Assembly (NCBI RefSeq): GCF_030384885.1
Contig: NZ_CP128614.1
Source: Escherichia coli
GTDB taxonomy: Bacteria; Pseudomonadota; Gammaproteobacteria; Enterobacterales; Enterobacteriaceae
DNA length: 64,000 nucleotides
Strand: one strand, 5' to 3'
Below, piece after piece: positions 9,001 to 12,000 of the stretch (its first letter is position 1; each line of letters starts with the position of its first letter). The position numbers were made by a program.

Positions 9001-12000
9001 CTTATGCCTATGTACCAAGCCTTAGATTCCTGATAGTTCTAAGGGCGAGAAATAGCAAACTTACTTGAAAATTGACTCTGAAATTCAAGCTTCAGCTAGA
9101 ATAAACTTCCGTTGCTCATCTTCGCATTTATAACATGCGAAATATTTGATTGTTTCCATATCACCAGTCACATACTCATCACAATGTGGACAGTTAACTG
9201 CTGACCATCCTCTATCAAAGCATGAAACACAACTCCACTGACCTTCAATATAGAAAACTGAATTTGGAGCGTGCTGACATACGTGACAACCAGCGACACA
9301 TTCGCCACCTTCCTCCCACCAATCATCACCCGTTACATATATGTCGCGACACAATTTTATTAAGATATTTGTGGTGATCTCATGAGCACATTGTGGACAT
9401 TTATTGATGTCAGGACTGAAAAATTCGAATGGTACTTTACAGTTTGGGCAAGGCAAAGTATCAGTGACTTGCTCTACCGCAACGCCCTGCGATTCGCAAA
9501 CAAGACATTCATAATCATCTCCCCATTTATGAGTATCATTAACTTTACCGGCTTCAAGGCCACATTGACGGCACTTAACTATTTTAATTTTTTTTAATCT
9601 TAAGACGTCAATTTCCTTTGAAAGCTCATTGAATCGGGTGCTGAGGAACTCTTTTTGTTGCAGCATTCTCTTATGCACACGCTCAAACTCTTCCTTAAAT
9701 TTAATAAATTCATCTTTCCATTCAATAGTGAGTAAATTATATAAATGGTGCCATGAAGACCATTGTTGAGCTACAACCCCTGCTTTATTAGCTTGAGCGC
9801 TTGAATATCCAGTGTGTGCAAAGTGAACAATTTGGTTCCTATGCGCACCTAACGTTCTGAACTCATCAAGGATACTGTCATCAAGTTTAATGCCAATAAC
9901 AGTTTTAAGACGTTGAACAGCGTCACTAAAATACACAGAATTAAAGTCACCAACGCTAAATTTTTGTTTATTAGCTTTGCCAGGATCATCTAATATTAAA
10001 GTCCAATGTTCGAGCATTAACCTTGCTTTTAAGAAAAGTTCAATGGCTGTATAGAAATCAACAATCGAATTTTTGGGTCTTATATTTAAATCATCAATTG
10101 ACGACTCAAGAAAATCTATAGCATTTATCACTAAAGAATCAAAAAGTTGTTCATTGCTCTGTACTGTTTGCTTAATGTATGTGCGTGCCATAATGCCTCT
10201 TGATTATATTGCCCTTCGAATGTTGAACATTATATCTTTAGAGGCAATATTTTGTCACATCCCACGATATTTTGGAGCTGAATTATTTGATCAGGCTTAC
10301 ACAATCTTTCTTCTCTATCCCCATTTACCTTTTGCTCTGTTACCTGCGTTGAAATGGTTGATGACCCACTAATACTGTACTCTGCCTCTTGTATAAATAC
10401 ATTTCAACATAAGATTGGCAAAGTAATCCTCCATAGTAGCTGCTTGAGTGGTTGATTGTCGGAATAGTGCATAGCCATTTTGGTCAGCAGAAAGCGCTGT
10501 TACCGAATGACTTGATCGTAGTACGTGTCTACTCGCCTACCAGAACTGCTGTCCTCTCATCAACTATCTGTATAGGACCATTTGAAACATCAGATATATT
10601 TTCAGAAATCTCCTGTTAGCGTGATGGTGACTATCTTAGCTGAGAAGGATTACGAATATATTCTTACATCATATTCTTTGAGGTGAAAGCTATCTATAAT
10701 TTTCCAGATAGCAAGTGTCTTTGAATGCATTATAATTGCCAATTTCTTGGTTTATTTCAATTTCATAATCTAAGCTGACAATAGGTATTTCAACACCATT
10801 TAATAAAAGAGACTCTTGATTTTTCTTCCATTTTTTGTTTTCATTCCATGCTAATTCACTTTTGTTCTCGGGGTCTCCCATTACTTCAATTTTGATACCT
10901 TTTAAAGTAAATGTACAATAAAATGATTTGATGTTTTCTGATGTGGTTTTAAACAACTCCCCTTTGATACCAGGGTTGATTAACTTGCATATTTCATTAG
11001 CCCCTTTCTCCGTTGTTATGATATCAATATCATTTGCATAAATTTGAACGCCTTGTAAGTACCTATTAGCCCCACCAGTTATACTCCAATCCTCCTCAAT
11101 CGGTTGGAGTAATAATGTTAATTCTGTAATTGCGTCGATCAATTGTTTGCTTTGAAAGTTATTTTTATTATAAAGCCGTTGAGCCCAGGTTTGTTTTATT
11201 TGCATACTGTGTTTTAAATAAATTGCATTATTAATGCTTGGAGCTGTAAATATCTCATGTTCGTATTTAGAATATATGTAAGATAGATATTCTGGTGCTT
11301 TGCGATTATTAATCTCTATGAATCCATCTATTTTTTTCATCTCATTGTGGGCGTTGAAAAAACCTGACACTTCTGAGAATAAATTATAGAAATTATTTAT
11401 GACTAGCATCCCAAATATGGCGCGGCTATACTGAAAATCTAAATTATCAGTCAGCGTGGTATACATAATAATAATTATACTAACTAGTAGTAGTATTGTT
11501 AGTAATAAATAGAATAACTTCTGCTGGAAAGCTTTAATATATAAGATAGAGTTCCAGTATGCATTCTCTTGTATGAGTGTTATTAACCTCTCTGCACGAA
11601 AGCCATTTTTATTTTCCGCATTACCATCAATGTAGAGTCGCTCTCGGTAAAAATTTTCCTCGCCTATAATACCTCTCAGCATTTCTAATCTTTTTGTTTC
11701 TATAGCCTTAGCTGCATACGAAGTTTTAAAATGCATTGCAAACCAAGTGAGGAGTTGTATTATAAACGTGAGGGTTGCAATACCGTAGAGCCAATGAGAA
11801 TTCAAAAAAATCCCGACGATCGATAAGCAGGAAATCATTAATGTTGAATAACTGATAGACTTAGATAAAAAGTCAACTCTATCAAAATAAAAACTACTGT
11901 TTTTTGATTCCATTTCTCTATCTTGCTCACTTTTTTTTGTATTTTTACATACGAATTGACAATGTCAAGATGTAGGGGGAATAATTTGTTCATAACGCAT

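Follow-up and report, generated by a model that had tools for sequence, protein, structure and literature searches.

Two neighbouring genes in Escherichia coli DNA

Does a membrane-tethered nucleotidyltransferase (NTase) encoded next to a zinc-ribbon HEPN protein form, together with it, an enlarged relative of the MNT/HEPN toxin-antitoxin modules? The question is raised by a stretch of 64,000 nucleotides of an E. coli contig (NZ_CP128614.1), hereafter the window, in which an original prediction made from the sequence alone placed such a pair beside a CBASS operon. Both open reading frames were confirmed, at 9085-10191 (368 aa) and 10690-11913 (407 aa), and their surroundings comprise the following features:

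8720..29080, no strand assigned: mobile island of 20.4 kb that carries the 4TM-NTase gene, the HEC-08 gene and the CBASS operon
9085..10191, minus strand: HEC-08-family gene, 368 aa, with an N-terminal DUF3644 HEPN domain and four C-terminal zinc ribbons (PADLOC)
10192..10689, no strand assigned: intergenic spacer of 498 bp, with no conserved ORF and no known RNA
10690..11913, minus strand: 4TM-NTase gene, 407 aa, a membrane effector-type domain fused to a TM1012-like nucleotidyltransferase
12186..12202, minus strand: terminator-like hairpin just 3′ of cap3 (consensus match only)
12249..16846, minus strand: type II CBASS operon capV-dncV-cap2-cap3 (Pfam and PADLOC matches), given as context outside the pair
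25966-27345, within the island: tyrosine recombinase

The island is inserted in a PAPS-reductase-family gene of an IncHI2-type plasmid backbone, the alignment of which stops at 8719 and picks up again at 29081; the HEC-08 gene marks the island edge. Enterobacter chromosomes hold the same island arm and the element is found mainly in Enterobacter, Klebsiella and on plasmids, while a DNA search of complete E. coli genomes returned no match for either gene or for the CBASS region. Both genes are AT-rich compared with the CBASS operon, as had been noticed, with a GC content of 0.32 for the NTase gene and 0.37 for the HEPN gene vs 0.41-0.46 for the CBASS genes (a gene of the plasmid backbone reaches 0.51).

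A HEC-08 gene at the island edge

Profile searches identify the 368-aa gene as a member of the HEC-08 single-gene anti-phage system. The PADLOC HEC-08 model PDLC04162 aligns residues 8-361 with model positions 7-354 of 358 (E 5.7e-70) and the PADLOC DUF3644 model also matches (E 1.7e-44), which bears out the HEPN call; PF12358 is precomputed on several homologues. The elements predicted within the protein were recovered as well, the zinc ribbons with exactly 8 of the anticipated 8-9 CxxC pairs:

9823..9840, minus strand: HEPN catalytic motif R118-N-Q-I-V-H123 (read directly from the sequence)
9124..9573, minus strand: zinc-ribbon region with 8 CxxC pairs, C207 to C356 (read from the sequence)

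Across 32 homologues, down to 28% identity, R118, N119 and H123 are invariant and so are all 16 cysteines of the CxxC pairs, a region for which Pfam offers a weak match to Zn_ribbon_IS1595. The AlphaFold model of the protein has a pLDDT of 86.8. A fold search with this full-length model against the PDB gave no significant match, the HEPN proteins AbiV, AF_0298, Csm6′ and HepT being top by probability, all with E >= 0.27, and the HEPN assignment is based on the profile matches and the invariant motif residues instead.

HEC-08 (PADLOC "Hma-embedded candidate 08"; Payne et al. 2024) was reported to confer phage defence as a single cloned gene, and defence by the representative was lost on mutation of its HEPN histidine H128 (preprint 10.1101/2024.01.29.577857). 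The window protein has the same build, a single gene with an N-terminal DUF3644 HEPN domain bearing Rx4H followed by C-terminal zinc-ribbon-like domains, but its catalytic histidine is H123 and it lies at the edge of a CBASS-carrying island rather than embedded in Hachiman (Hma). By this likeness, the HEPN domain (R118/H123) is presumed to be the RNase effector and the four zinc ribbons would presumably serve in sensing or targeting. A negative PADLOC result would have supported novelty; since the family is already listed there, the gene is not new.

A 4TM domain fused to a TM1012-like nucleotidyltransferase

The 407-aa protein consists of two parts:

11152..11913, minus strand: N-terminal 4TM domain, residues 1-254 (PADLOC model match, long helices in AlphaFold)
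10693..11124, minus strand: C-terminal TM1012-like NTase domain, residues 264-407, holding G280-G281...D295xD297 and E343

Three hydrophobic segments of the N-terminal part pass a strict Kyte-Doolittle cut-off (hydropathy-window centres near residues 28, 51 and 137-149) and a fourth at about 158-185, although weaker, is a long helix in the AlphaFold model, so the proposed 2+2 layout of four helices is reasonable; such a topology places every soluble part on the same side of the membrane. A conserved IQENxxWN motif and invariant Y217 and W243 characterize the domain, Y217 lying in the linker helices. As judged by profile matching, this N-terminal part is a CBASS-type 4TM effector domain: the PADLOC CBASS "4TM" effector model PDLC00724 matches the window protein modestly (E 7.9e-5) and 14 of 20 family members (best E 9.1e-12). 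The more specific expectation of an S-4TM effector held only as far as this PADLOC model. Given that Pfam S_4TM matched none of the family members and that comparing profiles with a single S_4TM protein gave no match either, we do not call the domain S-4TM.

The pol-beta NTase signature is present as G280-G281-x13-D295-I-D297 (nt 11023-11076), with G280, D295 and D297 invariant in 20 homologues, some only 17-26% identical, and an acidic residue at position 343 (E343) conserved in the family. A profile match of either the NTP_transf_2/MNT or the AadB kind had been anticipated and only the latter was obtained: PF10706 (aminoglycoside-2''-adenylyltransferase, E 2e-7) is the sole Pfam match of the protein and NTP_transf_2, the MntA type, is absent from the Pfam result. 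Neither the PADLOC cyclase models nor the Pfam SMODS and DncV models matched, and sequence and fold searches of the PDB returned no solved membrane protein. The structural neighbours of the NTase domain are TM1012, MenT1, LnuA and AadB.

TM1012 of Thermotoga maritima, a structural-genomics protein of about 160 aa (PDB 2EWR, 2FCL, 4HX0), has had a crystal structure since 2005 and, to our knowledge, no assigned function; nor do we know of a product for any TM1012-type NTase. Unlike the 407-aa protein, it is stand-alone, without a membrane domain. The nearest characterised structural relatives of TM1012-type NTases are not second-messenger makers: LnuA and AadB modify small molecules and MenT modifies tRNA. 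PADLOC 2.0, Pfam and NCBIfam hold no model for a 4TM domain combined with a TM1012-type NTase, and literature searches on TM1012, PF10706, S-4TM and SLATT with type III CRISPR turned up no account of this architecture.

The two genes part outside one island lineage

The original prediction raised the possibility that the NTase, anchored in the membrane, regulates the zinc-ribbon HEPN RNase or sends it a signal, in the manner of an enlarged MntA/HepT pair. NTase-HEPN pairing is an established theme and the likeness to HepT/MntA (type VII) is real in outline, a pol-beta-fold NTase and a HEPN protein being neighbours on the same strand; the two genes are adjacent in every island copy, including variants with 89-97% protein identity, and one of the weak fold hits obtained with the HEPN model is a HepT chain (6m6u_D). 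The families are nevertheless different. HepT/MntA joins an NTP_transf_2 NTase to a DUF86/HepT HEPN protein, as against TM1012/AadB-like and DUF3644 here (neither Pfam nor PADLOC finds DUF86/HepT in the 368-aa protein), and both proteins of the window are about three times larger.

The census of homologues largely refutes the pair. Among 4TM-NTase homologues at <=79% identity, no HEC-08 gene was found within 6-10 kb in some 11 separate contexts (covering Pseudomonas lundensis, Serratia oryzae, Dickeya, Mangrovibacter, Citrobacter, Pantoea, three metagenomic contexts and three CRISPR loci). In the other direction, HEC-08 homologues at 80%, 66% and 51% identity (3 contexts) have no NTase alongside and occur without a conserved partner. 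Adjacency of the two genes is limited to loci that also hold the same DncV CBASS (92-100% protein identity, with cap3 at about 95% at the DNA level), so that co-occurrence is confined to one island lineage. Their phylogenetic spread differs too, HEC-08 (more than 130 clusters, in Proteobacteria and beyond) being far wider than the 4TM-NTase family, of which the close part comprises only 13 clusters.

Nor is operon structure apparent. A gap of 498 bp separates the genes, and each is preceded by its own promoter-like site:

10229..10258, minus strand: promoter-like site GTGACA-18-TATAAT, 11/12, 38 bp upstream of the HEC-08 start codon (consensus match only)
11941..11968, minus strand: promoter-like site TTGACA-16-AAAAAT with TG before it, 28 bp upstream of the NTase start (consensus match only)

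Conservation in the region is lowest in the spacer, with 81-85% identity to island variants and indels of about 60 bp vs 91-97% identity for the flanking coding sequences, and a search of Rfam gave no match. Its non-coding nature agrees with what had been noted but its supposedly different composition is only a modest departure from the two genes, given a GC content of 0.39. A palindrome does overlap each putative promoter: AATGTTGAACATT (10219-10231) starts in the -10 hexamer of the HEC-08 site and runs downstream, and TTGACAATGTCAA at 11956 overlaps the NTase site. Both are short perfect 6-1-6 repeats and, with a background of 0.18 such repeats per 100 bp of the window, they are suggestive but weak.

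Taken with the report that HEC-08 works alone (preprint 10.1101/2024.01.29.577857), these observations make a joint MntA/HepT-like module very improbable. The evidence favours what had been kept as a fallback, two independent single-gene abortive-infection candidates, and we consider it probable that the genes are separate defence cargo of one mobile island, HEC-08 on one side and a self-contained membrane effector on the other. As proposed, the pair would have been a new toxin-antitoxin class, a claim that is dropped because the two genes are no such pair. What remains of interest is the 407-aa protein, in which a CBASS-type 4TM effector domain is joined to a TM1012-type NTase.

Neighbourhoods of the 4TM-NTase family

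Searches at E<=1e-3 returned 541 homologues of the 4TM-NTase protein, in fused, NTase-only and 4TM-only forms. The unit of 4TM and NTase is retained throughout the family, as one fused gene or, in a cyanobacterium, as a pair of adjoining genes. About 14 distinct contexts out of this 541-member family were inspected for their neighbourhoods, and family members turn up repeatedly alongside CBASS operons and within or adjoining type III-B CRISPR operons. In the window, the 407-aa gene lies directly downstream of cap3, the same order being kept in every island copy. On the Mangrovibacter and P0072 contigs the 4TM-NTase gene converges on a type I CBASS with SMODS and S_4TM, and in Pantoea it has a Cap4 nuclease at a distance of about 5.7 kb. 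Around the homologues of Dickeya, Citrobacter, S. oryzae and P. lundensis, no cyclase was found within 6-10 kb. The family is also present in chromosomes and in conjugative-transfer gene regions.

Placement in a type III effector operon is seen in distant members only, the window copy adjoining CBASS. The cyanobacterial split module, 4TM then NTase, sits between cmr5 and cmr6. In two metagenomic loci (L028 and L036) the fused gene comes first in a SLATT-cmr1-cas10-cmr3-RAMP operon of type III-B; the two fused proteins are only 34% identical, and the junction with the operon is an 8-bp gap in one lineage and an overlap of reading frames in the other. The 4TM-NTase module travels with three kinds of cyclic-oligonucleotide immune system, namely DncV CBASS, SMODS CBASS and type III-B Cmr. 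The sole find of a scan of viral contigs was a solitary 4TM gene, present in two related prophage-like contigs and lacking an NTase in its vicinity.

A scan of metagenome loci with a narrow 4TM-NTase alignment gave only two loci. A word-index protein search with a profile of the distant fused homologues returned almost only the close family and added no depth to the family alignment. Against a functional tie, proximity to CBASS or CRISPR may also result from the clustering of defence islands or from the embedding of unrelated systems, as the HEC-08 preprint itself holds (10.1101/2024.01.29.577857).

Possible control of the 4TM domain

The 4TM domain is likely the killing part, acting by membrane permeabilisation or as an ion channel, and the cytoplasmic NTase, whose active site looks intact in the sequence, would most likely make or attach a nucleotide ligand that controls it. 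Given that relatives adjoin CBASS or type III-B operons and that several stand alone, we favour a module that brings both synthase and effector and is linked to cyclic-oligonucleotide immunity. The simplest scheme would be that of a guard, in which the NTase is active all the time and its product holds the pore shut. Once enzymes or sponges of a phage broke down or bound up immune nucleotides, the pore would be freed and infection would be aborted. Such a self-contained guard system, with a nucleotide or oligonucleotide ligand, made or self-attached by the TM1012-type NTase, closing a CBASS-type 4TM pore, would explain why the module, fused or split, is found repeatedly by CBASS and inside type III-B CRISPR. 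We put it forward tentatively, as one possibility among several. The identities of the domains, the missing co-occurrence of the two genes and the genomic associations are shown; pore formation, NTase activity, the nature of the product and inhibitory rather than activating control are what we infer here.

Precedents for guard logic are Hailong and Panoptes (PMC13434031). As outlined in two reviews (PMC13434031, PMC13276650), Hailong consists of the HalA ion channel and the HalB NTase (Tan et al. 2025), and tyrosine-primed synthesis of poly-dA represses the channel. Like Hailong, the 4TM-NTase combines a transmembrane effector with a small NTase, split in the cyanobacterium and fused in the window, and a conserved cytoplasmic helical region of the 407-aa protein could correspond to the ligand-binding "crown". 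The likeness, drawn with a system known here through reviews, is one of logic only: PDB sequence and fold searches of the 407-aa protein matched neither HalA nor HalB, no top hit being labelled Hailong, and family members do not share a C-terminal tyrosine for priming.

In Panoptes (OptS/mCpol with OptE/2TM-beta) a constitutive nucleotide synthase restrains a membrane effector, and the mCpol-2TM operon is found beside type II CBASS in E. coli (PMC13434031). This position mirrors that of the 407-aa gene. The parts differ, with a Cas10-palm mCpol synthase and a 2TM-beta effector there vs a pol-beta TM1012-type NTase and 4TM here, and Panoptes is an analogy only. CBASS with a 4TM effector (e.g., EcCdnD12-4TM) shares the PADLOC "4TM" match, the logic of NTase plus membrane effector and the CBASS adjacency, but it employs a CD-NTase/SMODS enzyme rather than a minimal TM1012-type one; in the window protein the NTase is fused to the effector and Pfam S_4TM is not matched. 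The 4TM-NTase protein is best read as an uncharacterised nucleotide-controlled membrane effector and possibly as a guard similar to Hailong or Panoptes.

Alternatively, the 407-aa protein could be an additional effector of the DncV CBASS, with 3′3′-cGAMP opening the 4TM domain and the NTase modulating or ending the signal; in relatives, an equivalent signal would come from Cas10 or SMODS. The match of the N-terminal domain to a CBASS effector model, the constant position directly after cap3 and the near-equal number of contigs with the exact protein (342) and with exact DncV (349) all fit this reading, as do the distant relatives that appear operonic with type III-B cmr genes, and two-effector CBASS operons do exist (e.g., VvCdnG09-CapV-Cap5). 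We nonetheless hold it to be unlikely: cap3 and the 407-aa gene are separated by a 335-bp gap with a terminator-like hairpin and a separate promoter-like site, close homologues stand alone in the four cyclase-free contexts listed above, and an invariant NTase active site is unexpected in a pure receptor.

A toxin in the NTase itself, acting by nucleotidylation of tRNA 3′-ends in the manner of MenT/AbiEii while the 4TM domain, as sensor or anchor in the membrane, frees the NTase or switches it on upon infection, is quite improbable. The structural neighbourhood of MenT is shared by LnuA and AadB, which score similarly, and identity to MenT proteins is only 9-14%. Moreover, 4TM domains that lack an NTase are known from a CBASS effector model and from the lone gene of the phage contigs, which points to the 4TM domain as the active part.

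An antibiotic-modifying enzyme (aminoglycoside or lincosamide nucleotidyltransferase) on a resistance plasmid, to which the PF10706 match, the structural neighbours LnuA and AadB and the large IncHI2-type host replicon might point, is scarcely credible and was rejected on context and low identity: AadB and LnuA show only 9-10% identity, the protein carries a fused 4TM effector-type domain, the setting is a defence island (elsewhere also chromosomes, conjugative-transfer regions and type III-B CRISPR operons) and NCBIfam, resistance families included, gave no match.

If the 4TM-NTase is a defence system, the theme of an NTase with a membrane effector known from CBASS, Hailong and Panoptes would gain a fourth, unrelated NTase family, and type III CRISPR would gain a new ancillary module. 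Should the guard reading be true, the orphan TM1012 NTase family would obtain its first biological role. Clinical Enterobacter and large IncHI-type plasmids often carry the 4TM-NTase, and phage susceptibility there may therefore be affected.

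Sequence features of the two genes

9085-10191, minus strand: 368-aa ORF
10690-11913, minus strand: 407-aa ORF

Both ORFs, separated by a 498-bp spacer, were confirmed together with the motifs originally predicted in them: the nucleotidyltransferase (NTase) signature G280-G281-x13-D295-I-D297 (GG-x13-DID) in the 407-aa protein, and the HEPN motif R118-NQIV-H123 (RNQIVH) in the 368-aa protein. The CxxC pairs of the 368-aa protein number exactly eight. The 407-aa protein has three strongly hydrophobic helices and one weaker, in a 2+2 layout. The AT-richness claimed relative to the CBASS operon is borne out, with GC contents of 0.32 (407-aa gene) and 0.37 (368-aa gene) against 0.41-0.46 for capV-dncV-cap2-cap3 and 0.51 for a plasmid backbone gene; the spacer (0.39) is less compositionally distinctive than had been proposed. 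A promoter-like site lies a short way 5′ of each gene and a 13-bp perfect 6-1-6 palindrome overlaps each site as predicted, but these are just mildly unusual, since the window as a whole has 0.18 such palindromes per 100 bp.

The 368-aa gene belongs to a known defence family

The PADLOC HEC-08 model matches the 368-aa protein end to end (E 5.7e-70), and the DUF3644 model also matches it (E 1.7e-44); Anantharaman et al. 2013 classed DUF3644 as a HEPN-superfamily domain. R118, N119, H123 and the full set of 16 zinc-ribbon cysteines are unchanged across 32 homologues, the most distant of them 28% identical. The AlphaFold model is confident (pLDDT 86.8). A Foldseek search with it against the PDB returned no significant match, the top entries by probability being HEPN proteins (AbiV, AF_0298, Csm6' and HepT, all E >= 0.27), so the HEPN assignment is based on the profile matches together with the invariance of the motif. 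Judged from its sequence, the 368-aa gene is HEC-08, an already known system: one HEC-08 gene cloned alone gave multi-log protection against several coliphages, which was lost upon mutation of the HEPN histidine (Payne et al. preprint, 10.1101/2024.01.29.577857).

Homologues are found in Ewingella (80% identity), adjoining an FRG protein; in the cargo slot after ogr of a P2-like prophage (66%; loci L017-L020, 6001-7403); and in Stutzerimonas (51%). In the prophage loci, a 95-aa uncharacterised ORF follows the HEC-08 homologue with a 4-bp overlap; within this sub-lineage it may serve as a small partner.

The two genes as probably independent units

The original prediction joined the two genes in a possible new membrane-tethered MNT/HEPN module and proposed a census of co-occurring homologues. 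Both genes do occur together, on a K. oxytoca plasmid, in eight Enterobacter/metagenome contigs and in two variants whose NTase is 89% identical, but every context that carries both also carries the same DncV CBASS. No HEC-08 was found within 6-10 kb of 4TM-NTase homologues at 79% down to 22% identity, a set comprising P. lundensis, S. oryzae, Dickeya, Mangrovibacter, Citrobacter, Pantoea, the P0072 contigs, the P0064 contig, a cyanobacterium and two CRISPR-linked metagenomic lineages; conversely, none of the three HEC-08 contexts (Ewingella, P2-like prophage, Stutzerimonas) has a 4TM-NTase nearby. Close clusters number 13 for the 4TM-NTase versus >130 for HEC-08. Locally, cap3 is followed by a terminator-like hairpin and each of the two genes has its own promoter-like site. 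The spacer has no Rfam match and is the least conserved part of the region (81-85% identity with 60-bp indels, vs 91-97% for coding sequence). Finally, the NTase is of another family than MntA and the HEPN protein of another family than HepT. On the census, cluster breadth, local signals, spacer conservation and family identities, the MNT/HEPN pairing was rejected and the new module is not supported; the lack of co-occurrence among divergent homologues and the separate promoter-like sites favour instead the fallback offered with it, two independent genes.

The neighbours of divergent 4TM-NTases are varied. In S. oryzae an unrelated 372-aa gene comes next, and in Dickeya the neighbours are T4SS genes and ccdAB. 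The P. lundensis locus (L003, 5485-14126) is a defence island with a 1271-aa nSTAND3 (STAND) NTPase, a DUF6602 PD-(D/E)xK nuclease and an AbiC-like gene as flanks; the nuclease partially matches NucC models, and no obvious cyclase was seen in this island. In Citrobacter (L008, 7100-7864), the gene directly preceding the homologue on its strand encodes a Crp-like regulator with a cNMP-binding domain.

A 4TM domain fused to a TM1012-like nucleotidyltransferase

About 250 N-terminal residues: 4TM domain, PADLOC CBASS '4TM' effector model PDLC00724 (E 7.9e-5)
Residues 264-407: NTase domain, Pfam PF10706

By its profile matches, the 407-aa gene joins a 4TM effector-type domain to a TM1012-like NTase. 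PDLC00724 matches 14 of 20 family members (best E 9.1e-12), while Pfam S_4TM does not match the N-terminal domain. As a family profile, the NTase domain matches the structural-genomics protein TM1012 with E 7.6e-35, followed as structural neighbours by MenT1, LnuA, AadB, TglT and FKRP. The 20 homologues compared all keep the catalytic glycine and the two aspartates, and residue 343 is acidic without exception. We know of no product for TM1012-type enzymes.

An exhaustive HMM search returned 541 relatives, comprising fused forms (395-458 aa), many lone NTases (~150-170 aa) and lone 4TM proteins (~270-283 aa). A 4TM gene without an NTase is also found in a phage contig, flanked by structural genes and a MazF toxin-antitoxin module. 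What is conserved is the combination of 4TM and NTase. A cyanobacterial genome encodes the two halves as neighbouring genes (283 aa and 165 aa), which sit inside a type III-B CRISPR operon, between cmr5/cmr4 and cmr6 but on the opposite strand. Two metagenomic lineages (loci L028 and L036), with a mutual identity of only 34%, share an array headed by the fused 4TM-NTase gene and followed by a SLATT_4-like 2TM gene, cmr1, cas10/cmr2, cmr3 and RAMP genes, with an 8-bp gap to the next gene in one and overlapping reading frames in the other. The protein encoded between the fused gene and cmr1 (181-184 aa; L028 2093-2638, L036 5886-6440) resembles SLATT_4, a 2TM effector family, and these Cmr operons may have two ancillary genes for membrane proteins.

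Elsewhere, one enterobacterial group (Mangrovibacter, P0072 contigs) has the gene tail-to-tail with a SMODS + S_4TM type I CBASS, a Cap4 nuclease lies within 6 kb of the Pantoea relative, and the window copy directly follows cap3. Overall, a cyclic-oligonucleotide immune system is present in roughly half of ~14 distinct contexts, with three unrelated synthase types; the others are stretches of conjugative-transfer genes, or defence islands that lack a nearby cyclase. The 407-aa protein belongs to an uncharacterised fusion family whose genomic association is informative; it merits modest follow-up in its own right.

Possible control of the 4TM domain

The 4TM domain is likely the killing part, since it is homologous to CBASS effectors and is found alone in the phage contig. 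The NTase, being cytoplasmic, predicted to be catalytically intact and always with a 4TM domain, fused or adjacent, would generate or attach the controlling nucleotide. Control could be activating, as in CBASS, or inhibitory, as in the guard systems Hailong and Panoptes. According to the review PMC13434031, the HalA channel is repressed by HalB poly-dA and OptE by the OptS cyclic dinucleotide, and a Panoptes-type operon in E. coli adjoins a type II CBASS. By analogy, guard logic would best explain a module that can stand alone, fuses toxin-like and antidote-like parts and co-locates with cyclic-nucleotide systems. The same co-location could suit an extra receptor-effector serving the neighbouring synthase (DncV, Cas10 or SMODS), a role we regard as unlikely for a module also found with no cyclase nearby. 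The likeness of the favoured guard arrangement to Hailong and Panoptes is one of logic alone, as PDB sequence and fold searches gave no evidence of homology between the 407-aa protein and HalA, HalB or OptE.

The island and its other cargo

8720-29080: 20.4-kb island, delimited by the backbone alignment break
17297-17593, minus strand: 98-aa HTH_3 regulator
19205-21264, plus strand: overlapping genes for a 225-aa uncharacterised protein and a 464-aa ResIII/DEAD-type helicase
21659-27345, minus strand: four-gene run (products of 459, 591, 720 and 146 aa)

The replicon is an IncHI2-type plasmid whose backbone, up to 8719 and from 29081 onward, is common to about a thousand plasmids. The island is inserted in a PAPS-reductase-family gene, and the backbone alignment at its two junctions overlaps by 3 bp. 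A '651-aa ORF' at 6887-8842 is the truncated backbone gene, its first ~40 codons supplied by the island end. The HEC-08-like gene sits at the very edge of the island, whose other cargo comprises the 4TM-NTase gene, the type II CBASS with its HTH regulator, the ResIII helicase pair and a tyrosine recombinase. The same island arm recurs in many Enterobacter chromosomes, where a trehalase gene adjoins it; Klebsiella IncHI1B plasmids carry this arm too.

The four-gene run is probably the island's mobility module. Its 459-aa product is the tyrosine recombinase (Pfam Phage_integrase); the other three have no Pfam match, and the annotation of the K. oxytoca plasmid also includes the genes for the 720-aa and 146-aa products. 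Upstream of capV, the HTH_3 regulator weakly matches PADLOC capH (E 2.5e-4), and no CapP-like peptidase partner was seen near it. The helicase pair, conserved at 84-91% identity on a Klebsiella plasmid where it adjoins the same CBASS, may be another two-gene defence candidate.
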